From the IMG/VR virus record IMGVR_UViG_3300013308_000019, positions 1 to 64,000 of that record: a stretch of DNA of 64,000 bases. The stretch is one strand, 5' to 3'. How positions within the stretch are numbered: the first letter of the stretch is position 1; the number at the start of each line of letters is the position of its first letter. Position numbers and translations under genes: made by a program. The stretch comes from a virus (lineage: Duplodnaviria > Caudoviricetes). This document shows positions 34,686-61,267 of the stretch, in pieces. The notes beneath the pieces were generated by a model. The model was not told where the DNA came from, did not search any database, and saw only the letters and a program-made list of their open reading frames with translations.

Positions 34686-35354
34686 ATGGTACGACACCGC
34701 GCAAACGTACGAGACCGAGTTAGAACATGGTGGGACGAGAGGTCTGTCCACCCTCTAGTTCTTCCGATTGTGTGGGTGGTATTGTCAGTCCTGTTGTTGA
34801 TAGGGCTGGCAATTACCATTCCGCCGATCATCCACGATATCATCACACCCAAGGAAACAGAGCAGACTACTCAGCAACCGACGCCCACGCCGAAGCAGAG
34901 TCCTCCGCCTGTATCGCAGTCACCTACTGCACAGCCACGTCCTAAGGCCACACAAGAGCCTGTGCCGACTCAGGCACCACAACCGGTAGCACCGGAGCCT
35001 CAGAACGTTCCACAGCCTGTAGCTCCACAGCCGGTGCCTGTACAGCCAGCACAGCCCGTCCAACCACAACCGGTACCGGTAGCTCCACAGCCGGTGCAAC
35101 CTGTACCGCAGGTACCACAGCCACCGCAGGCACCGAGACCACCACAGCTACCGCCTGTGTTACAGGTACCACAGCCACTGCCGTTGCCGTTGCCAAGTCT
35201 CCCGGAGGTTCTAGAGCCTGTTGTACCGCCCATCCTAGGTCCGGTACTGAACAAGCCACTGGACACGATAGACAAGACCGTGAGAGGTACGCTGGGCACA
35301 GTTGATAAGACTGTGGACGGGGCCACCGGAATCGTCGGAGGATTGCTCCCATAG
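34686..35354 (+). CDS. Pro/Gln-rich membrane-anchored protein
   Basis: TM segment followed by PQPV repeats. Confidence 0.75.
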   Translation: MVRHRANVRDRVRTWWDERSVHPLVLPIVWVVLSVLLLIGLAITIPPIIHDIITPKETEQTTQQPTPTPKQSPPPVSQSPTAQPRPKATQEPVPTQAPQPVAPEPQNVPQPVAPQPVPVQPAQPVQPQPVPVAPQPVQPVPQVPQPPQAPRPPQLPPVLQVPQPLPLPLPSLPEVLEPVVPPILGPVLNKPLDTIDKTVRGTLGTVDKTVDGATGIVGGLLP

Positions 35355-35416
35355 TTACAAGAAACGCTTAGAGGCATCAACTTGCACAGTTGGTGCCTCT
35401 TTGCTATTCTGAATGC

Positions 35417-35953
35417 ATGAGAACGAAATGCGTACTTTGTAACTGCCGGATCAAAGACCGTGCCAACGCGGACCAGAAGACATGCTCTGCTGAATGCCGA
35501 GGTACGTACAAGTGGAAGACGCGTACGATGACCAAGCACCACGACCGGAGTACCTCCGGTCAGCGCCCCAGCTTCAAGCCTGAGGACTGGATCGACATCC
35601 TCAACAGGCATGGCAGGCGTTGTGCGTACTGCGGAACCAAGAAGGGGAAGATGACCATGGACCACGTCCTACCGCTCTCACGTGGCGGACGACACTGTGT
35701 CTCCAACGTTGTCCCCGCTTGCGGCCAGTGCAACAAGACGAAGGCCGACATGACTCTCATGGAGTGGAAGCGGAAGAAGCTCTACGACATGCGTCCGTGG
35801 ACGATGACTGTCAACGGAATCAAGATGAAGCGGCCCAAGGAAGGCAAGCTGTCGAGGACTCCCATCTTCCAGCAGATGATGCAGGAGATGGCTGACAGGG
35901 CGCTTCTGGAGAAGTACCCGCCTACAGTTGACTACATCGACATTCTAGTGTAG
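35417..35953 (+). CDS. HNH endonuclease
   Basis: CAYCG...TMDHVLPLSRGG.H..SNVVPACGQCN..K; N-terminal CxxC...CS..C. Confidence 0.9.
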   Translation: MRTKCVLCNCRIKDRANADQKTCSAECRGTYKWKTRTMTKHHDRSTSGQRPSFKPEDWIDILNRHGRRCAYCGTKKGKMTMDHVLPLSRGGRHCVSNVVPACGQCNKTKADMTLMEWKRKKLYDMRPWTMTVNGIKMKRPKEGKLSRTPIFQQMMQEMADRALLEKYPPTVDYIDILV

Positions 35954-35962
35954 GATGGGAGT

Positions 35963-36172
35963 ATGAATAAGACAATCAAAACACTGGCAGTAGCAGGCGC
36001 ACTCATTGGGACACTGGCCCTTACAGGCTGTGGCAGTAACAGGGAGGGAGTCAACGATAAGGGTTGGTCCAGCCAGAACATCGGCACCCCCAACGGAACC
36101 GTAACTTGCGTACTGTTTGACGGATACGACGGAGACACGATCTCCTGTGACTGGGAAGGACTACGTAAATAA
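35963..36172 (+). CDS. Small lipoprotein (two-Cys family)
   Basis: LTGC lipobox; GTVTC...SCDW. Confidence 0.75.
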   Translation: MNKTIKTLAVAGALIGTLALTGCGSNREGVNDKGWSSQNIGTPNGTVTCVLFDGYDGDTISCDWEGLRK

Positions 36173-36513
36173 TGTTCGGGCGCAAGCAAGGTAGGGGGTA
36201 TTACACACCCCCGCCACAGGAGGCACCACAGCAACGTATGCGGGCCTCATTCGGTGGAGAGAGGGGAGAGTATGTTATAGCCCGTAGGATTGAGCGTCCG
36301 GACCCGCTTCCTGCGGCGCTGGAAGCAATCCTCAACGCCGTACGCACAGCACAGGAACTAGGAGCAACCCCACAGGAGTTGGACTCCGTTATTCGTCAAG
36401 CAGTCGCAGAACAGGGAGGATATAACAATGGCGGACTACTACCCCAAGAGCCGAACGGATCACATCGCCAAGGTGATGAAGCTGGACCCCATCAAGGAGG
36501 AAATGGCCTCTAA
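36172..36513 (+). CDS. Hypothetical protein
   Basis: Coupled ORF. Confidence 0.55.
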   Translation: MFGRKQGRGYYTPPPQEAPQQRMRASFGGERGEYVIARRIERPDPLPAALEAILNAVRTAQELGATPQELDSVIRQAVAEQGGYNNGGLLPQEPNGSHRQGDEAGPHQGGNGL

Positions 36514-36651
36514 GATTTATGCGGAGCGGTACTCGGACTGCTTCTGTCGAGAGGACCACGACATCAATCCGCCATGCGGGTCCGTGAAGTGGGCGCGAGA
36601 AAAGGTGGATGAAATCTTGGCAATCGCAAAGAAGAATGGTATGCTGAAGCC

Positions 36652-36975
36652 ATGAAGATCATGCGGGTCAACTACGACAAGCCCCACCGCTGTCCTACAT
36701 GGTCAGGTCCCGGATGGAGCGGAGGTAAGGGCGAGTGTGCAGGCGGTAGCTTCGCACGCGTATTCCACGAAGAGGAATACCACCAGAGGAAGAGACCCGA
36801 GTGGCGGTTCCATACCTGTGAGTCATGCGGTGTTGTGGTTCTTCCCGAGGTCTTGAAGAATCTGGACCCCACGTGGTGGACACACCGTATCAGAGTCAGG
36901 GTCAGAAACATCCAGTACCGGTGGGCTGACTGGAAGTACTGGCGGGAACTTGACAAACAGGAAAAGAACAACTAG
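36652..36975 (+). CDS. Putative Zn-binding protein
   Basis: HRCP...C...CESCG. Confidence 0.6.
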   Translation: MKIMRVNYDKPHRCPTWSGPGWSGGKGECAGGSFARVFHEEEYHQRKRPEWRFHTCESCGVVVLPEVLKNLDPTWWTHRIRVRVRNIQYRWADWKYWRELDKQEKNN

Positions 36976-36984
36976 GATAGGAAC

Positions 36985-37371
36985 ATGATGAAGAAACTTA
37001 TTATTGCAGGCGTTATCGCCTTGGGTGCCGTGTCGCTGACCGGCTGTCAGAACCTCGTCAAGAACGATCCGGCTGTGTGTACGGTGGTGGACAAGGACCG
37101 ATCAACCGAATCAACGAAGGACGGTTCCAAGTCTGTCTTCCGTGTCTACACCGAGGGTTGCGGCGACGATAACGAAACGCTGGGCCTCGCGGACAACATC
37201 TTGCAGGGCAACTTGCGTTCGTCGGACATGTACGCTAAGATCAAGGTAGGCGAGACCTACCGGTTCGAAACCGTAGGTATCCGCAACGGGGCCTTCTCGT
37301 CCTTCCGTGAGATCGTACGGTTCACCAAGGTGCAGGCACCAGCGCCGGGAGTCACGGAGCCTGCCAAGTGA
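36985..37371 (+). CDS. Lipoprotein, secreted beta-rich phage family
   Basis: LTGC lipobox; CTVVDKDR...SSDMYAKIKVGETY.F.TVG.R. Confidence 0.75.
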   Translation: MMKKLIIAGVIALGAVSLTGCQNLVKNDPAVCTVVDKDRSTESTKDGSKSVFRVYTEGCGDDNETLGLADNILQGNLRSSDMYAKIKVGETYRFETVGIRNGAFSSFREIVRFTKVQAPAPGVTEPAK

Positions 37372-38510: not shown

Positions 38511-38542
38511 ACTGGTATCACACCAAGCGAAAGGAAAAGAAC

Positions 38543-38932: not shown

Positions 38933-38993
38933 TTACAAAAAACGCAAGGGCCATCCGGTTGACATCGGGTGGCTTTTTGTGTATGCTAGAGGT

Positions 38994-40269: not shown

Positions 40270-40374
40270 TTGACAGGGCGGTGGTTTGTGTATATTGACC
40301 TAGTACCAAGTATTGCCGGTGGTATAATGGTTTTAGACCATGTCCCAGATAGTAGAGTACTTGGAAGTAGTAAT

Positions 40375-40971
40375 ATGGAATTTCCTTTTGATACACCACC
40401 ACCGCCCCCATTCTTAGACGAAGAGCCTAAGGTCAGCAAGTCCCTCAGTGCCGGTAAGACTTCACCGGCAGAGCAAGGACAAAACATCCCGATGGGATGG
40501 AAACCGACAGCCGCCGAACCCGTTGCCGTTGTCCGCTGTACCGGTACCGCTAGCACCACAGGCGAACAGTGCAAGCGCTGGTCCCTCCGTGGAACCAACG
40601 TCTGCTCTAAGCACGGCGGACAGTTGCCGACCGTTAGAGAGCATGCCGAGGCCGTTGTGGAGTCTGCACGCATGCGCCTCATGGGAATGGCTGACCAAGC
40701 CGTAGACGGACTGGAAGACCTCATTGCGGTAGGCACTGCACCGCAGATCAGGCTTGCCGCTATCAAGGAAGTTCTGGACCGCTCAGGCGTGAAGGGTGGA
40801 CCGGACCTGTCCGTAGAGGTTACGCACTCCGTATCATACAAAGACGAAATCTTCAACCGCCTCAAGGAAATCAAAGAGCGCAAAGAAGCCATGGAGAAAG
40901 AGAAAGCCGCCATGCTTGGAGAAGATATTGTCGATGCCGAGGTACTTGACGAACCCGAGGAAACCGAGTAA
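40375..40971 (+). CDS. HGG-motif Zn-finger protein; possible terminase small subunit
   Basis: RCTG...GEQCKR...G.NVCSKHGG followed by RLAAIKEVLDRSG. Confidence 0.6.
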   Translation: MEFPFDTPPPPPFLDEEPKVSKSLSAGKTSPAEQGQNIPMGWKPTAAEPVAVVRCTGTASTTGEQCKRWSLRGTNVCSKHGGQLPTVREHAEAVVESARMRLMGMADQAVDGLEDLIAVGTAPQIRLAAIKEVLDRSGVKGGPDLSVEVTHSVSYKDEIFNRLKEIKERKEAMEKEKAAMLGEDIVDAEVLDEPEETE

Positions 40972-41187: not shown

Positions 41188-41246
41188 TTACAAAAAACGC
41201 AACGGCTCCACTTGACGGTGGGGCCGTTTGCATGTAAGCTGTAACC

Positions 41247-41867
41247 ATGAACACATTCAATGAAGGCGACCGAGTCTCCCATCCCGTCTACGGGAAGGGT
41301 ATCGTAGACGACCCGTACTCCGGTACCGGCTACGCTACCGTCCTGTTCGAGAACGGTAACAAGGTGATGGCCGACACATCCCTGCTGACACCGGTAACCC
41401 CTGCCTCACGGTTCAAAGCAGGAGACCAAGTCCATCACGCCCACCACGGCTCCGCTACCGTAATCGCCGTGAATGAGGCCCTGAAGCTCGTGACCATCCA
41501 GCCGTTCGCATACCGTGCCGGTTGGACGACACAGGTCCATCCGATCAGCTTGACAATGGAGTCGAACGGTGGTAAGTTCAAGGTAGGCGACCGCGTCTCC
41601 CACAAGCTCCACCGTGACGGTACCGTGGAAGAGATTCAGGCCAACGGGTTGCACGTCGTGAACATCGGCGGTAACCGTGTCTACATGGCACTGGAACACC
41701 AGATCGAGCATGCGGTACCGGAACCGACCTACCACATCTGCATCGAAGAGATTACCGGTGCCGCTCATGTTCCCGGTAGCCTCACCGCTAAGGAAGTTGC
41801 CAACTACATCAACGATGGGGTAGACTGGCGAGTAGCCAAAGAGATCACCATCACCAAGGAAGGCTAA
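41247..41867 (+). CDS. Triple SH3/Tudor-like repeat protein
   Basis: Three F..GD.V.H..(Y/H)G.G.V repeats. Confidence 0.75.
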   Translation: MNTFNEGDRVSHPVYGKGIVDDPYSGTGYATVLFENGNKVMADTSLLTPVTPASRFKAGDQVHHAHHGSATVIAVNEALKLVTIQPFAYRAGWTTQVHPISLTMESNGGKFKVGDRVSHKLHRDGTVEEIQANGLHVVNIGGNRVYMALEHQIEHAVPEPTYHICIEEITGAAHVPGSLTAKEVANYINDGVDWRVAKEITITKEG

Positions 41868-41869
41868 CC

Positions 41870-42046
41870 GTGGAATTCAAAGAAGGCGACACCGTACGGA
41901 TCACCGTAGAGGGAGACTCCGAGTACGGTAAGGAGCTACCGGTCTTCGGTACATCCGGAGACCATGCCGTGTGGGTCAACGTAGGGTTCGGCATGATCTG
42001 GTGCTACCGCCCCTTCGAACTCGAACTCGTTACAAAAAACGCATAG
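41870..42046 (+). CDS. KOW-like mini-protein ending VTKNA (array motif)
   Basis: GTG start; FKEGDTVRI. Confidence 0.6.
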   Translation: MEFKEGDTVRITVEGDSEYGKELPVFGTSGDHAVWVNVGFGMIWCYRPFELELVTKNA

Positions 42047-42322: not shown

Positions 42323-42350
42323 TTACAAAAACCGCTTAGAAAGGATCAAC

Positions 42351-42734
42351 ATGTTTAACCGAGGCGACCGTGTTACTCACATCAATCACGGATACGGCCA
42401 GATCATCAAGGTCGTGTCCGACACCGAGGTAGAGTGCTTCTTCAAGAACGGTATGGTGGACGGTGGCAGGGGTAAGCTATGGGCCACCGTACCGAAGTCC
42501 TTCCTCAAACCGATGCCGAAGCCCGAGACGGCCCTGTCAAAGATGGTGGAGAAGCTTGACAACAAGCGTCCGGGTACCAGCGGCTATGTCACGTACCGTG
42601 ACGAGATCGTGGACATCCTGTCCGAGCTTTCCAAGCTTGTACCGGCCAACGTCTTTCTGGAGAAGTCACCGTTTGAGAACGAGGTGCAGGTTACCATTAA
42701 GGTTTCCTTCACTCTGGAACGGGACCTGCTGTGA
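42351..42734 (+). CDS. SH3-like protein
   Basis: FNRGDRVTH..HGYG. Confidence 0.65.
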   Translation: MFNRGDRVTHINHGYGQIIKVVSDTEVECFFKNGMVDGGRGKLWATVPKSFLKPMPKPETALSKMVEKLDNKRPGTSGYVTYRDEIVDILSELSKLVPANVFLEKSPFENEVQVTIKVSFTLERDLL

Positions 42735-43511: not shown

Positions 43512-43904
43512 ATGGACATCAAGACAACAGCACCGTGGATCAATCCCGACGACGAGTTCACCGACGCACTAGGTCACCGCCACAAGGCGCTACGGATCGA
43601 CCGAGTCGAACGAGCGGACGGATACTACGTCTACGTGGAGGGCCAAGGCTACCCCGAGTTCTACCTGCGGGACCATGCGGTCACCATCCACGTACCCGAC
43701 CGTAAGTTCAAACCGGGCGAGTTCGTCACCGCACGGAACGGTAAGGGTGACTGTTACCAGATCGACCGTGTCTTCACCGACCGGTGGGGCAAGACCTACT
43801 ACGTGTTCAACAACGGTGCGGTGGATATCCGCAAGCGGAACCGCTCCGGTTGGCACGAGGCCGACCGTGCCGACCGAGGTTACAAAAAACTCTCAGATCA
43901 CTGA
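43512..43904 (+). CDS. Hypothetical cassette protein (leaderless)
   Basis: TTGACG-17-TATATT-6-ATG. Confidence 0.7.
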   Translation: MDIKTTAPWINPDDEFTDALGHRHKALRIDRVERADGYYVYVEGQGYPEFYLRDHAVTIHVPDRKFKPGEFVTARNGKGDCYQIDRVFTDRWGKTYYVFNNGAVDIRKRNRSGWHEADRADRGYKKLSDH

Positions 43905-43964: not shown

Positions 43965-44234
43965 ATGAAGCTTCGTTACACCGAACACCGGACCACCGTC
44001 ACCCAAGACCACGTCGAGGCCAGCGAGGACTTCACCGGGCCGATGGGGTTCCGGGATGTCATGCAAAAGGAGATCGCTATCTGCAAGGACTACGGGTCCT
44101 ACGAGGCGGCTGAGAAGCTGGCCGAGTGGGGCAACTTCCTCACCGAACACGAAGAGGTACAGGTGGGCGAGAAGATGGTCCATCACTACGGCACCGGCCT
44201 TGATCCCGTAGGAACGTGGGAGATCATCGCGTAG
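43965..44234 (+). CDS. Hypothetical cassette protein
   Basis: AGGAGG RBS; stop abuts motif. Confidence 0.75.
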   Translation: MKLRYTEHRTTVTQDHVEASEDFTGPMGFRDVMQKEIAICKDYGSYEAAEKLAEWGNFLTEHEEVQVGEKMVHHYGTGLDPVGTWEIIA

Positions 44235-44425
44235 CTACAAAAAACGCTTACCGCATCCGAGTTGCACACCGCGTCCGGATGCGGTAAGCTTTGAATATGG
44301 AAACCACAGAGAACTGCTCCGTATGCGGAGCCGAGACATACACCACCGGAGAGGTCAAGACCTTCCGAGTGTGCGAGGATAACCCGACGCACGTCTTCTA
44401 CTCTCACAACTGAAAGGTTCACATC

Positions 44426-45284: not shown

Positions 45285-45377
45285 TTACAAAAAACGCTTT
45301 GCCCGTTGGACTTGCATGGATGCGGTCCAGCGGGTAGAGTTGTTTTATCAGCTACCGATGAACCGAAAGGGAATCCA

Positions 45378-45878
45378 ATGAACTCCATCGCCACCCTCCA
45401 CAACCACTTCGACATTCAGGTTGACTCGAACCACACGTGGGACGAACCGAACCGCACGGTCCAGATCGAGGTGTTCCCGCTGGGCATCACCGCCGAGGGT
45501 CTGAACGAGACCGATGGGATAACGACGCTGGCCTTTGTGGAAATCCCGAACGGTACCGACGTCTGCGAGGACATGTGGTACGACTCCACCGACACCGAGG
45601 CTCTCGCCAAGCTCCCGCAGACATGGCAGGATGCCGTGCGGTCTGCCGTGGAGACTGCGAAGGAGACGCAGGGTCCGCTCGGGCCGATGCGGTACGCATA
45701 CGGCCAGACCGTCTTCCTGACCGAACACCGCTTCCCCGGTGACGTGGAGGACTTCACCACCGATGGCCGGTACGTTGTGGAGATGGCCAACAGCGGCATC
45801 CGCGACGTGTTTACCGAGGCCGAGATGGAGCCGTACGACGCCAACCGCTGGGAGGACGGCGAGGACTGGAACGCCTAG
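45378..45878 (+). CDS. Two-module cassette protein
   Basis: C-terminus paralogous to 42731..42922. Confidence 0.7.
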   Translation: MNSIATLHNHFDIQVDSNHTWDEPNRTVQIEVFPLGITAEGLNETDGITTLAFVEIPNGTDVCEDMWYDSTDTEALAKLPQTWQDAVRSAVETAKETQGPLGPMRYAYGQTVFLTEHRFPGDVEDFTTDGRYVVEMANSGIRDVFTEAEMEPYDANRWEDGEDWNA

Positions 45879-45965
45879 TTACAAAAAACGCTTACCGTGT
45901 CGAGTTGCCAACCGTGACTCGATGCGGTAAGCTTGTTTTATCAAGCCAACCGAAAGGGGAACACA

Positions 45966-46280
45966 ATGGAAATCACCAAGGCCAAGTTCATGGAAGCCGT
46001 CTCCCACACCGAGGAAAACCACGACGACATCCGACTCCGGGAGGGCTACTCCGGTCGCGGGATGTACGGCGAGACCTGCTACGGCGTCGTCGGTGACGAG
46101 ACCGCTCTGGCCGAGTTCGAAACCGCTCTCGCCCTGCTTACCGTGATGGATGACCTCGATGATGAGGTGAACGGCTACACCGCCCTCAACGCCTTGACCG
46201 ACGTGCAGGACATGCGCCGTGAGGACTCGATGGGGCTGGACCGCATCTACTACTACCCGAGCCTGACGGTCACCGAGTAG
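45966..46280 (+). CDS. Conserved phage hypothetical protein
   Basis: YSGRGMYGETCYG...DSMG...YYYP. Confidence 0.75.
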   Translation: MEITKAKFMEAVSHTEENHDDIRLREGYSGRGMYGETCYGVVGDETALAEFETALALLTVMDDLDDEVNGYTALNALTDVQDMRREDSMGLDRIYYYPSLTVTE

Positions 46281-46523: not shown

Positions 46524-46847
46524 GTGAACGAGAAAAAACGGGAGAAGTTCTGGAACGGTGCGACGGAGTACACCGGAGGGATACCGAACTACCGGTTCCA
46601 TGACGAGTGGTACTACCTTGTCACCGATACGGCTTACCGTGTCGTGGACGTATACTCTCTGGATCAGGCGCTGTACCTGTTCCACAAGATTGTAGAGGAT
46701 GAAATGTGTGCGGTCTACCTCTACCGTGGCCGGGACCATATGGCGACGTACAACGGCGGACAGTCAGAACCGGAGTGCGAAATCTACTACTCCGTTACAA
46801 AAAGCGCATTGCCGGAATGGCTTGCGGCGCTCTCCAAGATACAGTAG
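46524..46847 (+). CDS. Hypothetical cassette protein
   Basis: ORF containing a motif copy. Confidence 0.55.
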   Translation: MNEKKREKFWNGATEYTGGIPNYRFHDEWYYLVTDTAYRVVDVYSLDQALYLFHKIVEDEMCAVYLYRGRDHMATYNGGQSEPECEIYYSVTKSALPEWLAALSKIQ

Positions 46848-46856
46848 GATGTAGGC

Positions 46857-47063
46857 ATGAGGACATTCAGCTTCACCACATACCGTCAGGACGATGCGGG
46901 TTACATCTACCGGATCACCGAGACAATCTCGGAGGCCGTATTCCGAGACGGTGGGTACGTGCCGCAACGTGTGCTATCCACCGTAGAGTCCGAGGTCCGG
47001 GATGTTGACACCGACTACCCTGATGCCTTAGACTATCTACAAGAGGTCAACCAACAGTACTAG
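46857..47063 (+). CDS. Hypothetical protein (leaderless)
   Basis: TTGCGG-17-TAGGAT-6-ATG. Confidence 0.65.
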   Translation: MRTFSFTTYRQDDAGYIYRITETISEAVFRDGGYVPQRVLSTVESEVRDVDTDYPDALDYLQEVNQQY

Positions 47064-48042: not shown

Positions 48043-48124
48043 AGATGGTAAGCCATTGATATCGGCCCTGTAGCGGGGTCGGGGGAAAGAGCCATCCTAA
48101 ACGCGTTTCGGCCTTTTATTTTTT
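48043..48124 (+). ncRNA. Candidate small RNA, family 2, copy 1
   Basis: TTGACA-17-TATACT promoter, no credible protein ORF, hairpins, U-tract; paralog at 50357..50428. Confidence 0.55.
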
Positions 48125-48170
48125 GGGTCCTCTGGTTTCCCTGCCCCGCGTCTTTGCGGCTCCGCTTCAT
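48125..48170 (-). ncRNA. Candidate small RNA/minigene, family 1, copy A (core)
   Basis: ATGAAGC...GCAGGGAAACCAGAGGACCC. Confidence 0.5.
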
Positions 48171-48325
48171 AGCTTCATTCTTTCACAATTTCGATGCGGA
48201 TGCAAGTCTACAAGAAACGCGTTACAAGAAACGCATTGCGGTTAGAGTTTGCATCCGGTGGCCGTATGCCGTAGAGTAGAGCTATCGGGAACGACCGGTT
48301 CCCCCGAAGCCTTGGAGGTCTCATC

Positions 48326-48949
48326 ATGGGCGCACCCCGTATCGGTAACGTGCTGGACGTTCCGACTAAGCGTGTATATGCCGCTAACCCTAACTCGGCC
48401 CGTATCGTGGACGTGTGGCGGCAGGCTACCGTTTCCGAATTGGTAGAGGGTATGGAGTGGTACCGTGACGCTCACGCGCTCGCCGTGGAACTCTCCCCTA
48501 CTGATCCGGCGCAGGCCGCTGGCGTTATCGCCGCGCTGTCTCCCCTTATGTCATGGGGTCAGAATGTGGTGCTGGCAGTCCGCGCATATGCGGACGGTAA
48601 AGCATCCGGTGCACTCTTTAGCAACGTTGCTAAAGCCAACCGTATCCTCGCCGGTGAGCGTCCGGAGGATGTACTGGGCGGCGATAAAGTACGGGCGTTC
48701 TACGGTGCTATTGCTGATCCGGCATCGGATGCGGTTGTCGTTGACCGGCACGCGTTCGACATTGCCGTTGGCCGCGTGACTAACAACGAGTCGCGGCAGG
48801 CACTGGGCCGTAAGGGTGTGTACGATTCGTTCGCACGGGCCTACGTACGGGCCGCTAAGGCCATTTCAGCAGAGACTGGCATGGATGTATCGGCCAGTCA
48901 GGTACAGGCCGTTACGTGGACGGTATGGCGTAGGCTCAAGGGTCTGTAG
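48326..48949 (+). CDS. Conserved phage protein, HhH-GPD DNA-glycosylase-like
   Basis: WY..A...IAALSP..SW..N...G.KVRAFY...VVVDRHA...QAVTW. Confidence 0.55.
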   Translation: MGAPRIGNVLDVPTKRVYAANPNSARIVDVWRQATVSELVEGMEWYRDAHALAVELSPTDPAQAAGVIAALSPLMSWGQNVVLAVRAYADGKASGALFSNVAKANRILAGERPEDVLGGDKVRAFYGAIADPASDAVVVDRHAFDIAVGRVTNNESRQALGRKGVYDSFARAYVRAAKAISAETGMDVSASQVQAVTWTVWRRLKGL

Positions 48950-49044: not shown

Positions 49045-49404
49045 ATGGCAAGCATCGCAGAAACTCTTCTTACCCGCACGGCACGCGACGGCGGCGTTAC
49101 TGTCTCACTCGTTAGCGGCGACGTGGCCGCGCACACGTCGGGGTTCTACGTCGGCGGACGCGTCAAGGAAACCATCGTTTCCGACCCGTCAAGCATCGGG
49201 GACTACCTGACTGCCGTCTCCACCATCACCCGCCGTGCCGGTGGCGTAGGCTACGTGGGAGCGTGGAAGAACCACGAGACCGGTCTGGTCCACGTGGATG
49301 CATCGGATCACGTGGAGGACTTCGGGACCGCCGTACGGATCGCGCAGGAACGCGGCGAACTGGCGATTTGGGAGATCGCGGGCGGAACTGAATTCCGCCT
49401 CTAG
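49045..49404 (+). CDS. Conserved phage protein; paralog of 58435..58869
   Basis: GG.T..L...HT.GFYVGG...G.W...G.V..DAS...ELAIW. Confidence 0.7.
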   Translation: MASIAETLLTRTARDGGVTVSLVSGDVAAHTSGFYVGGRVKETIVSDPSSIGDYLTAVSTITRRAGGVGYVGAWKNHETGLVHVDASDHVEDFGTAVRIAQERGELAIWEIAGGTEFRL

Positions 49405-49493
49405 TTACAAAAACCGCATAGCGTCTAGGACTTGCGTCTTAGGCGCTATGCGGGTAAGCTAGTCATATCAGCCAAACCAAACAGGAGGACAAA

Positions 49494-49787
49494 ATGCCGC
49501 TCATGTCAGTCAAGCTCAAGAATCGCATTCTCAAGGCCGACCCCACGTTGGAGGTCCACCTGCGGAACATCCGGGTCAATGCGGACCCTCGCGGATGCTC
49601 TGGATTCATCGTCAACCCTGCCAATGGCAAGGTCGTGTACGTAGACACTGAGGAAAGTGTCTACGGGCCGCTACGGGGCAAGATTCTGTACCGGACGGCG
49701 GAACACACCAAGGACTTTACCGGTGGCGTCAACCGGTGGGCAACGGATGAAACGCTCGTTGCGGACGTGCTGCAACTGCTCAAGTAG
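49494..49787 (+). CDS. Conserved phage hypothetical protein
   Basis: RGCSGFI...VYV.TE...YRTA...KDFTGG.N. Confidence 0.75.
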   Translation: MPLMSVKLKNRILKADPTLEVHLRNIRVNADPRGCSGFIVNPANGKVVYVDTEESVYGPLRGKILYRTAEHTKDFTGGVNRWATDETLVADVLQLLK

Positions 49788-50302: not shown

Positions 50303-50311
50303 AACTTACAA

Positions 50312-50346
50312 GAAACGCTTAGCCGAAAGGCTAGGCGTTTTTTGTT
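50312..50346 (+). terminator. Intrinsic terminator built onto a motif copy
   Basis: AAACGCTTAGCC-GAAA-GGCTAGGCGTTT followed by a T-tract. Confidence 0.75.
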
Positions 50347-50356
50347 GTTGCGGCCT

Positions 50357-50428
50357 AAAAAATAAGGCCAGACTCGGCCTTCCCCGCCACCCGTCTCAGG
50401 GCGGCTATCATGTTCGCCTTGCGGCTAT
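50357..50428 (-). ncRNA. Candidate small RNA, family 2, copy 2
   Basis: TTGCAT-17-TAAGCT promoter on the minus strand; TGATA-hairpin-GGGGAAG; terminator and U-tract. Confidence 0.55.
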
Positions 50429-50545
50429 AAAATAAGCTTACCACCTTGCGGATGCAGATGCAAGTCTACAAGAAACGCATTGGGACTTGCGGATGCGCTC
50501 GCATGCGTGTACGTTTAGGGTAACGGATCAACGAAAGGGAAGATC

Positions 50546-55119: not shown

Positions 55120-55326
55120 ATGAAGGTTTTCTTCGAAGCACTGGTCGATGGACAGTACGTCAACCAGAAGCGTCTGGCGGATATCCCGGATGAGAAAGCT
55201 TACGCTCGGGCGGCTAAGGCCTACCCGAATGATCCGGACTACGTGGAGCAGATGCTCGACGGACGCGGCTACATCTACATCAACGGCCACAACTGCCGGT
55301 TCACCTACCAACAGGACAGCCTCTAG
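55120..55326 (+). CDS. Hypothetical cassette protein
   Basis: Stop abuts motif. Confidence 0.7.
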   Translation: MKVFFEALVDGQYVNQKRLADIPDEKAYARAAKAYPNDPDYVEQMLDGRGYIYINGHNCRFTYQQDSL

Positions 55327-55429
55327 TTACAAGACACGCATAGGGCCTCTACGGAGGCCCTATTTGCGTTTGGGCGGAAAGGTGGTATCGTTGAGGTATC
55401 GGCAAGGGTTGCCGGTAGGAAAGGGAGTC

Positions 55430-55750
55430 ATGGAACTCAACGTCAAGTACAGCACCGCGAATCTGGAAGCAACCAAGGGTAGCGCGGACGCCTCACCCGG
55501 TGACCGCAACGCGGCACCCTACCTGCTGAAGCTGGACACCGTGGAGCGGCGTCTGCGGGCTGTAGGCGAGGCCCACACGCTCATGAACCTGCTGGGCTTC
55601 CGGTACTCTGAGGCTGTCTACAACGCCGTATCGGACCTGAGTAAGAACATTGCCGCTGGGCAGGAGGATAAGGCCCTCTACGGCGAGGCTATCGCTAAGC
55701 GGTACCGCGACGAAGAGAACGCACGCCGGAAGCTGGAACGCGGGTACTGA
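55430..55750 (+). CDS. Hypothetical protein, last gene of the plus arm
   Basis: GGGAG RBS; followed by motif and terminator. Confidence 0.7.
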   Translation: MELNVKYSTANLEATKGSADASPGDRNAAPYLLKLDTVERRLRAVGEAHTLMNLLGFRYSEAVYNAVSDLSKNIAAGQEDKALYGEAIAKRYRDEENARRKLERGY

Positions 55751-55763
55751 TACAAAAAACTCT

Positions 55764-55800
55764 TAGGCTCTCATCCTCCGGGATGGGAGCCTATTGTTTT
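55764..55800 (+). terminator. Terminator closing the plus arm
   Basis: TAGGCTCTCATCC-TCCG-GGATGGGAGCCTA followed by TTGTTTT. Confidence 0.75.
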
Positions 55801-56287: not shown

Positions 56288-56388
56288 GGTTCCCTTTCGT
56301 GGCCGGTGTTTCCGGCTCATGTAATGAGCTTACCGGACAAACAGAAAACGCGCAACCCCGAAGGGTTACGCGTTTTTTGTAAGTGGGG

Positions 56389-56589
56389 CTAGTCCTCATC
56401 CCAGACTTCGCCCGCGTAGTCGTCCTGTTCGGACGAGTTGCAGACTGGGCACTGATCCGTGCAGGAGGCCCAAGAGTAGATGTAGTACCACGAGCCGTCG
56501 AACTTGGAGCGGGTGGGGGAGACGATGCGCTGGTGGCCAGCGGCGTCGGTGTAGACCTTGTCGCCGGGGTATTCTGCGAAGGTTGACAT
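56389..56589 (-). CDS. Small Cys-containing cassette protein
   Basis: AAGGAG RBS; CTDQCPVC. Confidence 0.65.
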   Translation of the reverse strand: MSTFAEYPGDKVYTDAAGHQRIVSPTRSKFDGSWYYIYSWASCTDQCPVCNSSEQDDYAGEVWDED

Positions 56590-56698
56590 TGTTTTCTCCT
56601 TGTTTGGTTTGACCTTGTACCTACAGCTTAGCATGGTTTCGCGGGGCTTGTCTACTCGGGAGGCTGTGCGTTTTTTGTAAGGGTCCTAATTATTTTAG

Positions 56699-56732
56699 GG
56701 GTCCTCTGGTTTCCCAGCCATGTCCGCTTCAT
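56699..56732 (-). ncRNA. Candidate small RNA/minigene, family 1, copy B (core)
   Basis: TTGACA-17-TAGACT-6-ATGAAGC...GCTGGGAAACCAGAGGACCC. Confidence 0.55.
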
Positions 56733-56828
56733 GGTTTGAGTCTACGGGGTTTGAGGGTGAGTGTCAAGCCTGCGGCAGACACAAGAGAGAGGGGAGCCTC
56801 TCGGCTCCCCTCTAAGCGTTTCTTGTAG

Positions 56829-57002
56829 TTACCAGCGGTCCATCATGAAGGTGTGTCCGCCGAATCCTTGGATGACTCCGCAGATGACCATGACGATGGT
56901 TGCCACCACCAGCCCGCCCATGAAGGCCCATCCGATGATGCAAAAGAGAATCCAAGATGCGATATCGAGGAAACCTTTGATTCCGGTGTATGAAGACTTC
57001 AT
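56829..57002 (-). CDS. Small membrane protein
   Basis: MKSSYTG...hydrophobic...MMDRW; stop abuts motif. Confidence 0.6.
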   Translation of the reverse strand: MKSSYTGIKGFLDIASWILFCIIGWAFMGGLVVATIVMVICGVIQGFGGHTFMMDRW

Positions 57003-57103
57003 GGCCTGCTCCTAAGTTTGTATCGGCTTGTTCCGATGTATAGAGCTTAGCATAGGCTCCGAGTAGTTGTCTACCCGAAGCCTATGCGTTTTTTGTAGCT
57101 GTG

Positions 57104-57346
57104 CTAGCGGTCAAGCGGCACGCGCTCCAGCGAGCCAGTGCCGAAGTAGTCCACGTTGAGCAGGTACTCAGAGCCGTTCCAGCGAGCGCGTGCGCCGCTC
57201 CTGTAGCCATTGTCGAGCATGTGATCTGCGATAGCCTCGCTAGAGGCGTTCTCGATGGCGTAGGCCTTGCCACGGACCACGTAGCGGCTTCCAGCGGCTC
57301 CCCGTACCGTGCGCTGAGTCTGGTTCTTCTTGATGGTCTTTCCCAT
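57104..57346 (-). CDS. Hypothetical cassette protein
   Basis: AAGGAG RBS. Confidence 0.65.
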   Translation of the reverse strand: MGKTIKKNQTQRTVRGAAGSRYVVRGKAYAIENASSEAIADHMLDNGYRSGARARWNGSEYLLNVDYFGTGSLERVPLDR

Positions 57347-57435
57347 TGTCTTACTCCTTGTGTGCGTTTTTTGTATTGGAATTGCCATTAGTGGCATGCC
57401 CTACTAGGTAGCGTACCACCTAGTAGAGCAAACTG

Positions 57436-57702
57436 CTAATCGCGGGCTTCGTCGTCCGAGACTTGGAACATCCACGAATCGGTGTAGATGTTCCGGCGAA
57501 CTGTGATCTTGCCCTGAGCTACCAGCGATTCGAACGCCTCGCGGTAGTTCTTGAGGTTCGCGGGAGTCTCGCGGATGTTGTGCCACGCGAGCGTGCTTTC
57601 GACGGTACGCTCCACCATGATGTCCCGGTGAGTGGTGTGGGAGTCGTAGAATCCGTCGTTCCACTCGTTGATGTAGGTGAGGATGTTGTCTTCGCGGCTC
57701 AT
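57436..57702 (-). CDS. Hypothetical cassette protein (possible winged helix)
   Basis: REAFESLVAQGKI.VRR. Confidence 0.65.
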   Translation of the reverse strand: MSREDNILTYINEWNDGFYDSHTTHRDIMVERTVESTLAWHNIRETPANLKNYREAFESLVAQGKITVRRNIYTDSWMFQVSDDEARD

Positions 57703-57798
57703 GTCTTGCTCCTTGGCTTGTCTCGGCTTGTTCCGATATGGATAGCTTACGCTAGTCGGGAGAGTTATGCAACCCTCCCGACTAAGCGTTTTTTGTAG

Positions 57799-57990
57799 CT
57801 AGTCTTCGAGGTCTTCGATCTCTTCCACCTCTGCGGCTTGGAAACCATGCTCGTCTTCGAGTTCTTCGAGAGTGGTGTACCAGAACCCGCCGACCCCATC
57901 CGGAGTGATGAAGTACATGTCATCCTTGCGGACGTAGTACGCGGTATCGACGGTGAGTTCGGAACGGGGAGTGAGGGTTGCCTGTGCCAT
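57799..57990 (-). CDS. Acidic cassette protein
   Basis: Stop abuts motif. Confidence 0.7.
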   Translation of the reverse strand: MAQATLTPRSELTVDTAYYVRKDDMYFITPDGVGGFWYTTLEELEDEHGFQAAEVEEIEDLED

Positions 57991-58085
57991 TTTCTTTTCC
58001 TTTGTTTGGAGCGGCTTTGCTTATGTGTCTAGCTTAGCCTAGGTGGGAGAGTATTGCAACCCTCCCACCTAAGCGTGTTTTGTAA

Positions 58086-58340
58086 CTACGCTTTACCGTA
58101 GTGCCCACCGTCTGGCAGGTCACCACAGCAGGGGAAGAAGTGGATAGGCCACGCCTCATCCTCGCCACCCTCTGCGATGAAATCGGCGTTGTAGTCGAGC
58201 CACAGATCACGCTTGCTGTCGAAGTCGTCATCGAACCAGTCGTGACCCTTCTTGGCTTTGGGAACGTCTGCACAGTCTGCGCGGTGAACGCTCACGTCGT
58301 AGTCGTTGTTCCCATTGCCGTTGATGGTTACCAGTTTCAT
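58086..58340 (-). CDS. Conserved actinophage hypothetical protein
   Basis: VHRADCAD...FFPC. Confidence 0.7.
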   Translation of the reverse strand: MKLVTINGNGNNDYDVSVHRADCADVPKAKKGHDWFDDDFDSKRDLWLDYNADFIAEGGEDEAWPIHFFPCCGDLPDGGHYGKA

Positions 58341-58434
58341 GATGACTCCTTAGGTCTATCGGCTTGTTCCGATATGAATAGCTTACACGCAAAAGGCCCG
58401 AGAACCAAATCTCGGGCCTATGCGTTTTTTGTAG

Positions 58435-58869
58435 CTAGTTGACGTAGATGCTCACCTTGTTGGCAACATCCCAGACGGCCAGTTCCTCGCGCTCCTTAGC
58501 TACGAGCATTGCCGTCTCGTAGTCCTCGTACCACTCGGAGGCTTCAGCGTAGACAACACCGGACTCTACCCACGTGCCCATCAGCCCGAGGCCTTCAGTG
58601 GTCGCGTAAGCCATTCCCAGTGCGTACTGGTAGTCTCGGGTATCCGAGGCCTTCAGGTCGAACATGTGGGGCTTGTGGAGGCCTGCCACGTAGTAGCCGG
58701 TGGTGTGCGAGGCCATGGCCATGGTGGGGCTGGAAAGGTCGAGAGTGCATCCACCGTTGGCGGACGTCTCACGTGAGAGGGTGACGCCGCGAATCTGACC
58801 ATAGGTCCGGAGCTTCGGCGTGACGCCGGAGTTTTCGTTGCGCATGGTCTCTACTGTCTGAGCGGACAT
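58435..58869 (-). CDS. Paralog of 49045..49404
   Basis: GGCTLDL...HTTGYYVAG...GTW...EAS...ELAVWD. Confidence 0.7.
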   Translation of the reverse strand: MSAQTVETMRNENSGVTPKLRTYGQIRGVTLSRETSANGGCTLDLSSPTMAMASHTTGYYVAGLHKPHMFDLKASDTRDYQYALGMAYATTEGLGLMGTWVESGVVYAEASEWYEDYETAMLVAKEREELAVWDVANKVSIYVN

Positions 58870-59002
58870 TGGTTCCTCCTGAGTGGATCGGATGGTTTGA
58901 TATGAAGAGCATACCACTACTTTTGCGGATGATGCAAACTGCGCGGATGACGTGCGTTTTTTGTAAGTTGCGCGTGAGCGCGGATGCGTGTAAGCTGAGA
59001 GT

Positions 59003-59040
59003 ATGAAGCAACCGATTGAAGCTGGGTCACCGGAGGACCC
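59003..59040 (+). ncRNA. Candidate small RNA/minigene, family 1, copy D (core)
   Basis: TTGCGC-17-TAAGCT-6-ATGAAGC...GCTGGGTCACCGGAGGACCC. Confidence 0.5.
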
Positions 59041-59147
59041 ACAAAATAAGTGGGTCGGAAAGTAGGCATCACTCCATTCTCTCATAGTTTTTGGGTGGTT
59101 GTCAAGTGGGCTGAGGGCAAAAGAAAAGGCCCTTTCGGGCCTTCCCT

Positions 59148-59459
59148 TTAGAGTACTTCGTACTTGCCATTCGGCTGGCGGTACTTGATGTACGTGCAAC
59201 CGGCGTCGTACTGCGCCCATTCCAGCGGCTGGAATGCATCCTCGCTGTCCGCGTCACCGTAGAAGTAGCCGGTGAAGTAGCAGTTGTCGTCGTCGTCGTA
59301 GAGCTTGAAGTGGGTACCCTTACCGGCCTTGCCGTCGCGGATGCTGGCACGCTCTGCGTTGCTGGTGCCGTACACGCGGGGAGTTTCCAGCTTTTCCAGC
59401 TTTTCACCGAAGTTGGGGTTGCTGTCTTCGATTGCCGAGTGAGTGATCGTGAAACCCAT
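59148..59459 (-). CDS. Conserved phage hypothetical protein
   Basis: F.LYDDD...YF.G...PL.W...DAGCT.I.Y. Confidence 0.75.
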   Translation of the reverse strand: MGFTITHSAIEDSNPNFGEKLEKLETPRVYGTSNAERASIRDGKAGKGTHFKLYDDDDNCYFTGYFYGDADSEDAFQPLEWAQYDAGCTYIKYRQPNGKYEVL

Positions 59460-59579
59460 TGTGACTCCTAAGTCCGTTTCTCAAGCTCCCTGCTTGATGA
59501 CTCAAGCCTATCATCTATTCGGCAGATTGCAAACCCCAATTTCGCAATGCGTTTTTTGTAACCGGCCTGAAAGTAAAAG

Positions 59580-59613
59580 GGGTCCTCTGGTTTCCCTGCC
59601 TCCGGAGCTTCAT
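59580..59613 (-). ncRNA. Candidate small RNA/minigene, family 1, copy C (core)
   Basis: TTGCTT-17-TACCAT-6-ATGAAGC...GCAGGGAAACCAGAGGACCC. Confidence 0.55.
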
Positions 59614-59693
59614 AGTTCCATGGTACCGGCTTTGCCGGTGGGAAGCAAGTCCCTGAGGACAAAAGAATAGGACCCCTTTCGGGGTCCTATTCT

Positions 59694-59882
59694 CTAGTCT
59701 TCGTCGTCTCGCGGATCGTAGATTTCCCGCTGACGTTCGCGGATTTCGTAGAGTTCCTCGTCCCACTTGCCAACCAGTACGCGGTACCGTGCGGCCTGAT
59801 CGGAGGTCATCCGCTCGCCGTTATCTACCATGTCGTCAAACAGGGACAGTTCGCGGGCCTCTTCGGTGGTGAGCTTTGCCAT
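59694..59882 (-). CDS. Hypothetical cassette protein
   Basis: AGGAG RBS; followed by terminator hairpin. Confidence 0.7.
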   Translation of the reverse strand: MAKLTTEEARELSLFDDMVDNGERMTSDQAARYRVLVGKWDEELYEIRERQREIYDPRDDED

Positions 59883-59974
59883 GATGTTCTCCTAAGTCTC
59901 TCGGCTTGTTCCGATGTACTAAGACTACAGGCATAGGGGACAGGATGCAAGTCCTATCCCCTACGCGTTTTTTG

Positions 59975-60298
59975 TTACCGCTTACGGGTGAACACGTGCC
60001 ACGTGTGGGGCAGGTTCACGGATCGGATGACCACGGAACGCGGGCTGACCTGTGGCCGCTTGTGGTAGGTCCCTGTGTACCGATACGGGTTGCTGTAGGT
60101 GTAGCGGATGTCTACCGCGTCGAAGGACTCCCACGCGTCACCGATGCCCTTGTAAGAGCCTGTGCACTGTGTGCGGCCTGTGGTGTCACAGTCCCACGTC
60201 TGCGGCTTGTGAGTGGCCGCTGTGGCCGGTGAGAGCATACCGAGGGCGAGGGCGAGGGTTGCGGCGAGGGCGAGCAGGATGCGGGTAAGGTTTTTCAT
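59975..60298 (-). CDS. Secreted protein
   Basis: Signal peptide ending ATA-A; two Cys. Confidence 0.7.
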   Translation of the reverse strand: MKNLTRILLALAATLALALGMLSPATAATHKPQTWDCDTTGRTQCTGSYKGIGDAWESFDAVDIRYTYSNPYRYTGTYHKRPQVSPRSVVIRSVNLPHTWHVFTRKR

Positions 60299-60368
60299 GT
60301 GTCTCCTTTGGGTTGCGGGTATCCAACATATAAGACTCTAGGGCATGCGGTGCACGATTGCAAGCTGA

Positions 60369-60818
60369 CTATGCGGCGCACTCGGGGTAGCTCCACAGTT
60401 CCACAGATTCGAACTGATGCGCGTAGGCCTCAGCCTCACACTCGTTAGCTCCCATGGTGTGTGCAAGCTCGTGGAACAGGATGTGATTCCCCCACGCTGT
60501 ATAGGCAAGCTCAGGGGAGATAAGGACTGCATAGCGCCCATCATCCATAGGGACTGTGCAACCACCTTGGCCTACCTCTGAGAGTGTAGCGCCACAGTTG
60601 TCTTCATTCTGGAAGACGAACACCACGTTCTCAGGGTAGTCTACGCCACCATCTGCAAGGGCCTCACGTGCCCACAGTGAGGGCAGTTTGAATGGGGCGA
60701 GGGACAGGTAGTCTGAGTAGTTGGCAGACTCCCTAACAGGGGCTGTAGCAGGGGCTGACGTGGGCACTGGAGCGAGGATCGCTGACAGGCTGAGGATGAT
60801 GGTGAGGATGATGTTCAC
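60369..60818 (-). CDS. Secreted HExxH metallopeptidase-like protein
   Basis: Signal peptide; HILFHELAH...ECEAEAYA. Confidence 0.7.
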   Translation of the reverse strand: MNIILTIILSLSAILAPVPTSAPATAPVRESANYSDYLSLAPFKLPSLWAREALADGGVDYPENVVFVFQNEDNCGATLSEVGQGGCTVPMDDGRYAVLISPELAYTAWGNHILFHELAHTMGANECEAEAYAHQFESVELWSYPECAA

Positions 60819-61267
60819 TGTGTCTCCCTTGTGAATGACTGACTACGTCTATCCTCTCATGTGTTTGTCTCATGTGTCAACTTGAAATGCTCATGAGTTT
60901 ATACTGTGTTCAAACGCGCACGCCCGCACGCGCACGTGATTGTCCTCTAGTATTTTATTTTTGTCAAGCCATTTGGCGATGCGTTTTTTGTAGGCTCGCG
61001 TGGTCAATGCGTTTTTTGTAACGCGCTTGGGTGTGGGTTGTGTGGGATACGCGAAGCGTTTTTTGTAGTGTGGTTTGTGTGGGTTGTTGGGATGCGTTTT
61101 TTGTAAGGTGTAGGTTGTGTAGGTTGTATTGCTTTGTTTGATGCGGCATGATACAATCCTTGCGGATGCGGCTGTTTTTTGGAAACTTTTGGGGGTGGGG
61201 TCGCTGTACATACGGCTACCTGCTACTAAAAATAGGAAAAAATTACACTAATATACACAGTTAAGTG

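Follow-up and report, generated by a model that had tools for sequence, protein, structure and literature searches.

The window analysed here comprises 64,000 nucleotides (positions 1 to 64,000) of the IMG/VR record IMGVR_UViG_3300013308_000019, a viral contig of 95,273 bp with an estimated completeness of 55% (G000). Its right-hand part carries an array of small, poorly conserved genes that are separated by copies of a 13-mer, TTACAARAAACGC, which in many cases is combined with a stop codon, a hairpin and a promoter. It is likely that this interval represents an early gene block of the host-takeover type in an actinophage, in which almost every small gene forms a transcription unit of its own, based on a repeated junction of about 85-100 nt.

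The window contains 26 exact copies of the 13-mer compared to 0.02 expected from shuffled sequences, and 61 copies at up to 2 mismatches compared to 1.6 expected. Of these, 57 are located within 35355-61106, all in the local gene orientation, which agrees well with the about 58 copies counted in a first-pass annotation of the same DNA. The copies are found on the plus strand up to 55750 and on the minus strand from 56382 to 61106, and the two blocks converge at about 56 kb. In the plus block (35355-55793) there are 41 copies, each at a small-gene junction, and a terminator closes the block; the minus block (56345-61106) holds 16 copies. Thus, 57 copies are concentrated in 26 kb and essentially none are present elsewhere in the 95-kb contig. 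The remaining 31 kb beyond the window contain no 13-mer except one match with 2 mismatches. An isolated exact copy at 20297-20309 (+) lies inside a coding sequence outside the array and is probably not part of this system.

A hairpin and a promoter accompany 33 of the 57 copies, and 10 have a promoter alone. Five copies (50306, 55327, 55750, 56382 and 56828) carry a tetraloop terminator; where a promoter is present at all in these, it lies beyond the terminator. The minus block begins with four copies in tandem. Another four to six lack both hairpin and promoter and are situated between a stop codon and a Shine-Dalgarno (SD) sequence or within coding sequence.

The same array was found in related phages. 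An exact-motif scan of viral contigs identified G001 (171,752 bp, 99% complete), in which 58 copies (at most 1 mismatch) at 80.6-107.5 kb are arranged in two blocks as in the window. Degenerate pattern scans added, among the matches listed, one 18-kb fragment and the complete genome G002 (168,556 bp), whose array is built with TAG, TTACAAAACTTCAYWAG. The genome of Arthrobacter phage Mimi contains an array of the same design at 7.1-19.7 kb, and there, too, a plus block meets a minus block.

Stop codon, promoter and hairpin within one junction

A canonical junction is located at 49402-49496 (+). The TAG stop codon (49402-49404) is directly followed by the 13-mer (49405-49417), and its CGC opens an 18-bp hairpin that is closed by the GCG preceding the -10 box. 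The -35 box TTGCGT (49432-49437) is positioned at the apex of this hairpin and the -10 box is TAAGCT (49455-49460). The predicted +1 is the A at 49467, followed by an SD sequence and the ATG at 49494. As a consensus, the junctions read TAG, 13-mer, WTAG..TTGCAT/TTGACA-17-TAAGCT-6-A.

Stop codons were tallied for the 44 junctions at which an open reading frame (ORF) of at least 35 codons ends. The stop codon abuts the 13-mer in 24 of them and is 1-6 nt away in 8, while in another 8 it is the TAG of the WTAG directly after the 13-mer. The share of TAG among the stops amounts to 36/44 at the array junctions versus 22/101 in the motif-free region at 1-35 kb. Hence, the earlier statement that the 13-mer mostly follows a stop codon, usually TAG, was correct. 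Since stops are found both abutting the 13-mer and in the trailing WTAG, the element supplies stops in two frames.

A -35 box (TTGCAT/TTGACA) is present in 44 junctions, and in 41 of these it starts 11-16 nt past the 13-mer. In the eight junctions measured for the first-pass annotation, it was placed 11-14 nt downstream, inside the loop of an inverted repeat. This distance is essentially right, but the arrangement is not universal: a hairpin is missing from 10 of the 43 promoter junctions, and 13 of the 57 copies lack a promoter in the normal position. The 17-bp spacing proposed previously is found in 35 junctions, with 16 or 18 nt in the other 9. The -10 box is TAAGCT, TAGNCT or TATGCT, and a conserved A within TATC is situated 7 nt downstream of it. 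Relative to the next promoter the 13-mer occupies about -62 to -50. A generic promoter scan undercounts these promoters because of the TAAGCT-like -10 box. They appear to be of the host (SigA) type and are predicted to fire early on host RNA polymerase. The idea that the junctions join a gene end to a host-type promoter is supported.

In six junctions the ATG is located exactly 6 nt past the -10 box and no SD sequence is present (35417, 38994, 41247, 43512, 44297 and 46857). The ORFs opened by these start codons comprise 38-206 codons and look like leaderless mRNAs, which are frequent in Actinobacteria. Examples are the first array junction (35352-35420, +), which leads into the ORF 35417-35953, and the junction 41188-41253 (+), where the ATG at 41247 follows TAAGCT and opens the ORF 41247-41867. 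At 43512 a block of homology to G001 begins exactly at the leaderless ATG. The other junctions have a leader of 24-40 nt (median 32 nt) with an SD sequence, and several of these leaders open with a small hairpin (ATCGGAACAAKCCGA).

A further sequence, AACCAGAGGACCCC, is invariant at 56698-56711, 59579-59592 and 48124-48137 (all on the minus strand) and is shared with G001, G002 and Mimi. The copies are located inside tiny leaderless ORFs (MK..R..GNQRTP) starting 6 nt past a -10 box, the third copy being antisense in the plus block. The sequence may encode a family of small basic peptides or represent an element of RNA or DNA.

For the 43 promoter junctions, the span from the end of the 13-mer to the -10 box was folded. 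The mean minimum free energy (MFE) is -23.8 kcal/mol, compared to -11.1 kcal/mol for shuffled sequences (p about 1e-10). The base of the stem is formed by the CGC of the 13-mer and the GCG directly ahead of the -10 box, and WTAG is frequently paired with CTAW. The -35 box is at the hairpin apex and the 3' arm constitutes the spacer in 33 junctions; about 10-11 nt are unpaired ahead of the stem in all lineages. The hairpin arms quoted earlier at 35370 and 44246 are present as written: AGAGGCATCAAC/GTTGGTGCCTCT in the first array junction, and the 14-bp arms GCTTACCGCATCCG/CGGATGCGGTAAGC in the junction 44232-44300 (+), where the 3' arm runs into the -10 box TAAGCT.

The sense RNA is more stable than the antisense RNA (mean -18.5 kcal/mol) in 39 of the 43 junctions and less stable in 3. 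In a stricter junction set, the numbers of G.U pairs on the sense and antisense strands are 42/11, 22/10, 33/2 and 29/5 in four genomes (126 versus 28 overall), with little strand difference in shuffled controls. The sense-strand bias of U.G mismatches, previously noticed in the arms that were checked, is thus a property of all four genomes. Covariation was assessed in 16 gap-free orthologous hairpins of G000 and G001 with 260 pairs. Of the 35 pairs that changed, 27 still pair, compared to 20% under random placement; 9 of these are double changes and 18 are accommodated by wobble. A compensatory A-T to G-C change is seen in the first array junction. Hence, the hairpin is selected as sense-strand RNA. 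Rfam and tRNA scans gave no matches.

Hairpins are restricted to particular junctions. The 33 promoter junctions at ORF ends have MFE values of -20 to -33 (mean -27.7), whereas the 10 without an ORF end have values of -3 to -16 (mean -10.8), which is the level of shuffled sequences, and the two sets do not overlap. An example of the latter is 46795-46862 (+), where a 13-mer identical in G001 precedes a promoter without hairpin and no ORF ends. G001 repeats the link between hairpin and ORF end more weakly (-23.6 versus -11.4, p=0.007). Occurring where an ORF ends, the hairpin is thus part of the upstream message.

A clear sense-strand T run follows the hairpin in about 8 junctions (38126, 38933, 43451, 50306, 55327, 55750, 56382 and 58434). 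In the remaining junctions, only the moderately T-rich -10 region comes after the hairpin. Hairpins without a U tract are common in Actinobacteria, and their efficiency is debated. The copy at 50306-50347 (+) precedes a tetraloop hairpin with T run, i.e. a canonical, bidirectional-looking terminator, and has no promoter; the last plus-block copy (55750-55793) is likewise followed by a terminator hairpin and T run. At 55327-55390 (+) the 13-mer and a tetraloop terminator hairpin are followed by the -35 box TTGCGT, which is the classical order of the promoter-early stem-loops (PeSLs) of T4-type phages. The last minus-block junction (56345-56382, -) also consists of 13-mer, tetraloop terminator and promoter. 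A unit directed against the plus block was noted at about 50360-50460 (-). Its promoter, TTGCAT-17-TAAGCC, shares the 13-mer region of the junction at 50466 and is followed by a short structured stretch (GCCGCCCTGAGACGGGTGGC) and a terminator (50381-50364). Possibly a small RNA, the unit is conserved in both G001 and G002.

The head of the minus block (60939-61106, -) contains four tandem 13-mers (61106, 61068, 61021 and 60993) in CA-rich spacer DNA, all kept in G001. The last one is 13 nt upstream of the promoter formed by TTGACA (60967-60962), 17 nt and GACAAT. The adjoining non-coding stretch 61110-61280 consists of CA-rich short repeats (ACAACCCACAC-like) and an AT-rich patch and resembles the sequence around the inner end of the Mimi terminal repeat (about 19,868); a repeat boundary is one possible explanation, an origin another. 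Another tandem pair, CTACAAGAAACGC g TTACAAGAAACGC, with one base between the copies, is found at 48208-48234. As G001 lacks the first copy, the pair appears to reflect a recent duplication in place or the scar of a recombination event.

In the proposed mechanism, translation of the upstream gene would end at a stop codon, usually a TAG supplied by the element, and the conserved AT-rich 13-mer would follow at about -62 to -50 of the next promoter. A hairpin of 14-20 bp in the sense RNA would form the 3' end of the upstream message, presumably acting as terminator or attenuator and as a protective 3' structure. The SigA-type promoter would be interleaved with this hairpin, which works because the arms use positions that the promoter leaves free, namely those upstream of the -35 box and the 17-bp spacer. 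The new transcript would then start either with a leader of 24-40 nt including an SD sequence or directly with an ATG at +1. The 13-mer itself would be read as DNA by a protein, either the alpha subunit of the polymerase or a dedicated factor.

Role of the 13-mer and turnover of the cassettes

Retention of the 13-mer was scored at up to 1 mismatch between G000 and G001, which are about 80-87% identical. It is kept in 21/21 orthologous junctions with hairpin and promoter and in 9/9 with a promoter only, and its variation is limited to positions 1, 7 and 9. Copies without hairpin or promoter behave differently. In four of these, at 42323-42353 (+), 37781, 42030 and 57376, the 13-mer directly precedes SD sequence and ATG, and two of five orthologous copies have decayed in G001 (37781 and 57376). 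Since the 13-mer stays with promoters that lack both hairpin and gene end, its selected role goes with the promoters. Among the roles offered by the first-pass annotation, a site at fixed phase upstream of the -35 box fits best, and the specificity of TACAA.A..CGC exceeds what an A tract needs. A literature search with the motif string gave no match, and one for actinophage intergenic stem-loop promoters returned nothing relevant. A trans-acting RNA complementary to the 13-mer was also considered and rejected, as no complementary copy exists except the terminator T tracts.

It is possible, if on balance doubtful, that a dedicated regulator, probably encoded by the phage or delivered with the virion, uses the 13-mer as its operator and turns about 45 early promoters on or off together. 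The element would then be a regulon mark of the stoperator or activator type and not a generic AT-rich upstream element. Such a site would account for the 9-10 near-invariant positions, for the asymmetry and tie to the direction of transcription, for the fixed distance to the -35 box and for the retention in all orthologous promoter junctions, including those embedded in coding sequence. The four tandem copies before the first promoter of the minus block would also be explained. In addition, TTACAAAA is constant across the lineages, whereas the 3' half is AACGC in the window and CTTGA or CTTCA in Mimi and G002, a pattern expected of co-evolution with a protein; the Mimi form is TTACAAAACTTGAATAG. 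On the other hand, the lineage-specific 3' half is at the same time the base of the stem, which could explain this drift, and no candidate binding protein was found, and the cassette proteins yielded only weak matches to winged helix-turn-helix (wHTH) domains. A role in repressor immunity is unlikely because neither an integrase nor a lysogeny module is present.

A more far-reaching version, which we regard as speculative, combines two claims. In the first, the core TTACAAAA and the lineage-specific 3' half would be read by a dedicated, co-evolving lineage factor that switches the about 45 early promoters as one regulon. In the second, the interleaving of hairpin and SigA promoter would go beyond saving space and be a selected coupling device that physically ties termination of one unit to firing of the next.

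Alternatively, the 13-mer might act in the upstream RNA, either as an A-rich spacer for the ribosome footprint or as the site of an RNA-binding protein or RNase at the 3' ends. The stop codon within a few nt in most junctions and the about 10-11 unpaired nt before the stem are in line with this, as are the copies that accompany the conserved promoterless terminators at 50306 and 55750 or lie between stop codon and SD sequence in four junctions. We nevertheless consider an RNA role unlikely, since 10 copies without ORF end or hairpin are perfectly kept, the four head copies have no upstream gene, and it is precisely the copies with only stop codon and SD sequence that decay. Moreover, a spacer would explain the length of the element but not its sequence.

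Even less probable is that the junctions are intrinsic terminators of antisense transcription, in which a hairpin is followed by GCGTTTYTTGTAA as a canonical U tract. Such terminators would shield the block from convergent transcription. In every hairpin junction the reverse complement of the 13-mer does provide a perfect U tract immediately following the stem, antisense folding remains stable, and the two blocks converge. However, the stems are optimised for the sense strand in the four genomes, 10 junctions keep the 13-mer without a hairpin, and neither the TTAC nor the tandem head copies are explained. Furthermore, about 40 fail-safe terminators behind two bidirectional ones would be excessive.

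The genes of the array were previously described as self-contained units, and comparison of G000 and G001 agrees with this. Single-gene cassette bodies are covered by homology either completely (about 30) or not at all (about 15), and only multi-gene intervals show intermediate coverage. Two adjacent cassettes (45300-46277) are missing from G001, with both ends in 13-mers. The cassettes 59148-59459 and 55120-55326 are found in the opposite block and orientation in G002. The gene 41870-42046 is located at another position in G001; a clean excision from 13-mer to 13-mer was rejected for this gene, since the picture is more complicated. Ten of 24 homology-block starts fall within -4 to +7 of a 13-mer (p=2e-10 versus uniform placement), and within the junctions 9 of 13 starts are in this 12-nt window (p=1.5e-6). 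The block ends are scattered from the 13-mer to the leader and SD sequence. The 20-kb repeats of Mimi and phage Racecar, which are 94% identical, differ by one cassette. The left end of this indel is in the shared motif and the right end is at the SD sequence, and the promoter-hairpin of the neighbouring junction is replaced as well.

The alignment of relatives that had been suggested as a check therefore places breakpoints at the junctions, as anticipated, but the motif-free region at 1-35 kb, which consists of small plus-strand genes, is comparably mosaic relative to G001, with block ends mostly within a few nt of gene boundaries. Neither a tyrosine integrase (PF00589; positive controls of the search were found) nor RecT was detected in G000, G001, G002 and Mimi, so that the absence of an integrase noted for the window extends to its relatives. 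Together, the equally mosaic motif-free region and the lack of integrase and RecT mean that motif-driven recombination is not supported. Consequently, the proposal that the 13-mer is a site-specific recombination joint of an integron-like platform with a dedicated recombinase is the least probable of all: although all-or-none cassettes, block starts at the 13-mer, relocated and inverted cassettes, the motif-bounded single-cassette indel of Mimi and Racecar and the persistence of the 13-mer at some promoterless junctions could be explained in this way, no recombinase was found, the hairpins contain no attC-type core sites, the right-hand breakpoint of the Mimi/Racecar indel is not at the 13-mer, and crossover ends spread over the whole junction as in homologous exchange. 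By analogy with the PeSL model, the shared junction sequences presumably provide the homology used in cassette exchange.

Phage lineage, genomic position and gene content

PHROG matches in G001 include a large terminase, a portal protein, a major head protein, PolA, a primase and rIIB as well as an RNA ligase, PhoH, NAMPT and a PurZ-like enzyme. By tblastn, the head (capsid) protein is closest to those of the Arthrobacter phages Mimi, Racecar, Talia1610 and Atuin (64% identity; phage genomes of 192-194 kb), followed by those of large actinophages of Gordonia, Microbacterium and Mycobacterium. No match was found at the DNA level by megablast and blastn against isolated phages. A Pfam search for Gp23, which would indicate a relationship to T4, gave no match, but the positive controls were silent as well. 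The window probably belongs to a virulent soil phage of about 172 kb that is related to Mimi and has an Arthrobacter-like host.

In Mimi, a junction consists of TAG, TTACAAAA[C/A]TTGAATAG, an arm, TTGACA, the second arm, TAGTCT, a leader, an SD sequence and ATG, and the gene calls of the depositors end exactly at the motif. As shared by the lineages, the family core thus comprises the stop codon, TTACAAAA, a few bases that differ by lineage, and the hairpin carrying the -35 box at its apex. Microbacterium phage Pumpernickel, with a head protein of 42% identity, has no such motif.

The Mimi array lies inside a direct terminal repeat of 19,868 bp, as motif matches recur at an offset of 172,660 in the record of 192,528 bp. 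Gene 1 of Mimi matches 40270-40971 of the window, and AT-rich non-coding stretches by the head cluster (about 61.2 kb) are similar. The ends of the Mimi repeat would therefore map to about 40.3 kb and 61.2 kb of the window, and the array is probably the counterpart of the long terminal repeat of Mimi.

Several points weigh against reading the interval as an early gene block with autonomous, hairpin-terminated units. The evidence for structure is per junction and not column-wise: RNAalifold detected no common structure in 31 aligned junctions, because the stems sit in shifted registers. G001 contains exceptions to the rule that hairpins occur at ORF ends. Because most hairpins have no U tract, their effect may be attenuation or stabilisation instead of termination. 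Promoter activity, termination and timing are predicted from sequence features throughout, and at 9-13 copies of the 13-mer a promoter is missing from the normal position. The near-invariant TACAA.A..CGC would be unnecessary for a plain UP element, and the mosaicism of the motif-free genes mentioned above is relevant here as well. Finally, the placement in a terminal repeat is observed in Mimi only; in the window it is based on synteny, and about 5 kb of the array would be outside the repeat.

Thirty cassette proteins were scanned against Pfam, and almost none had a match. The only strong one is DUF7178 in 48326-48949 (E=1e-52). Weak matches were obtained for XTBD, wHTH and Kyano_Gp96, and CarD/TRCF-RID (Tudor-like) was found in 41247-41867 and 42351-42731. 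The neighbouring early proteins 41247-41867, 41870-42046 and 42351-42731 contain repeats resembling the RNA-polymerase-interacting regions of CarD/TRCF, and two to three such cassette proteins may bind RNA polymerase. The Mimi counterparts of the cassette genes are all annotated as hypothetical.

No ORF longer than 361 aa is present in the window under any genetic code. An alternative code as the cause of the short ORFs was thus rejected, since none opens long frames. An equivalent layout is seen in G001, so that this region is simply rich in small genes. To the left of the array, at 1-35 kb, about 100 tightly packed small plus-strand genes without the 13-mer are found, a layout that is kept in G001; the part at 15-28 kb is highly mosaic relative to G001. 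Outside the window, G000 encodes DndB-like, PRPP (phosphoribosyl pyrophosphate)-synthetase-like and NAMPT proteins and a protein of 2360 aa with a UvrD-type helicase core (L048:4240-5745, L049:1500-3931 and L049:7473-14555). In G001, a PurZ-like homologue of adenylosuccinate synthetase is located at 190-1674 (L052), which could mean that the DNA contains 2-aminoadenine.

Comparison with known systems

Integron cassette arrays resemble the present array in that single-gene units are parted by imperfect inverted repeats that differ in sequence but preserve their pairing. Integron cassettes, however, mostly lack promoters and depend on a common one, whereas 44 of the 57 junctions here have their own promoter. 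In further contrast to integrons, the array has no IntI or other tyrosine recombinase, and the G.U strand bias is of the RNA type. The stems also lack conserved inverted core sites. The 13-mer is outside the stem and has no inverted partner, and only CGC/GCG and WTAG/CTAW recur.

The stoperators of cluster A mycobacteriophages are asymmetric repressor sites of 13-14 bp that occur in dozens of copies, in short intergenic regions, and are locked in orientation. The 13-mer is similarly short, asymmetric, present in many copies and oriented with transcription, and the host phylum is the same. It differs in its unrelated sequence, in the fixed distance upstream of the -35 box, where stoperators lie within transcription units, and in its pairing with a hairpin and promoter. 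Stoperators are bound by the repressor of temperate phages that have an integration and immunity system; the present phage has no integrase, and an immunity system was not identified, although a repressor was not specifically searched for.

The host-takeover module of SPO1 and the pre-early genes of T5 consist of many small early genes of unknown function in long direct terminal repeats, nearly all of them with a strong host-type promoter and a terminator of their own. The array resembles such blocks in its many small genes. In Mimi it also shares the terminal-repeat location, which for the window would follow from synteny. To our knowledge, neither a conserved 13-mer nor an interleaved hairpin and promoter has been described in the SPO1 and T5 blocks.

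The closest parallel is provided by the PeSLs. The earlier statement that no known system matches this architecture was too strong, because the array follows the PeSL design in another phage lineage, with the hairpin around the -35 box and not upstream of it. PeSLs are known from the T4-type phages RB49/phi1, T4/PST and KVP40/nt-1, where each module comprises a stem-loop, an AT-rich tract, a promoter of the host sigma-70 type and an SD sequence and is associated with small, non-conserved genes. The modules delimit indels, replacements and displacements among relatives, with crossovers assigned to the AT-rich tract or to the stretch from the -10 box to the SD sequence (Arbiol et al. 2010, PMC2839356; Comeau et al. 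2014, PMC4122927). PeSLs are further characterised by measured activity as promoters and terminators and by mini-circles that arise through recombination of modules. The array has the same components, namely stem-loop, AT-rich tract, sigma-70-type -35 and -10 boxes and SD sequence, together with small genes and cassette indels at the modules, and the crossover positions in Mimi/Racecar and G001 are as in the PeSL picture.

The differences are nevertheless clear. The AT-rich tract of the array is a near-invariant, stop-abutting 13-mer and far more conserved than published for PeSLs. The hairpin encloses the -35 box in 33 junctions, and the order with a separate upstream hairpin occurs only at 55327, 56382 and 56828. 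Moreover, hairpins are limited to junctions at ORF ends, some junctions form a leaderless class, and the phages belong to an actinophage lineage without relationship to T4 and with hosts from another phylum. The array is thus a PeSL-type system of large actinophages with three features that have not been described for PeSLs, i.e. the 13-mer, the wrapped hairpin and the leaderless class.

With this, the PeSL idea of portable promoter/terminator cassettes for adding, dropping or swapping small early genes with no disturbance to adjacent ones extends from T4-type phages of Gram-negative hosts to large actinophages. The arrangement is unusually tidy, since three signals share about 65 nt and can still be separated, the hairpin going with the gene end and the 13-mer with the promoter. 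The about 55 ORFan cassettes, including the CarD-RID-like proteins, constitute a list of candidate host-takeover genes, and a junction would serve as a compact, insulated expression part for Actinobacteria. Because Mimi is available as a cultured relative on A. globiformis, the predictions are directly testable.

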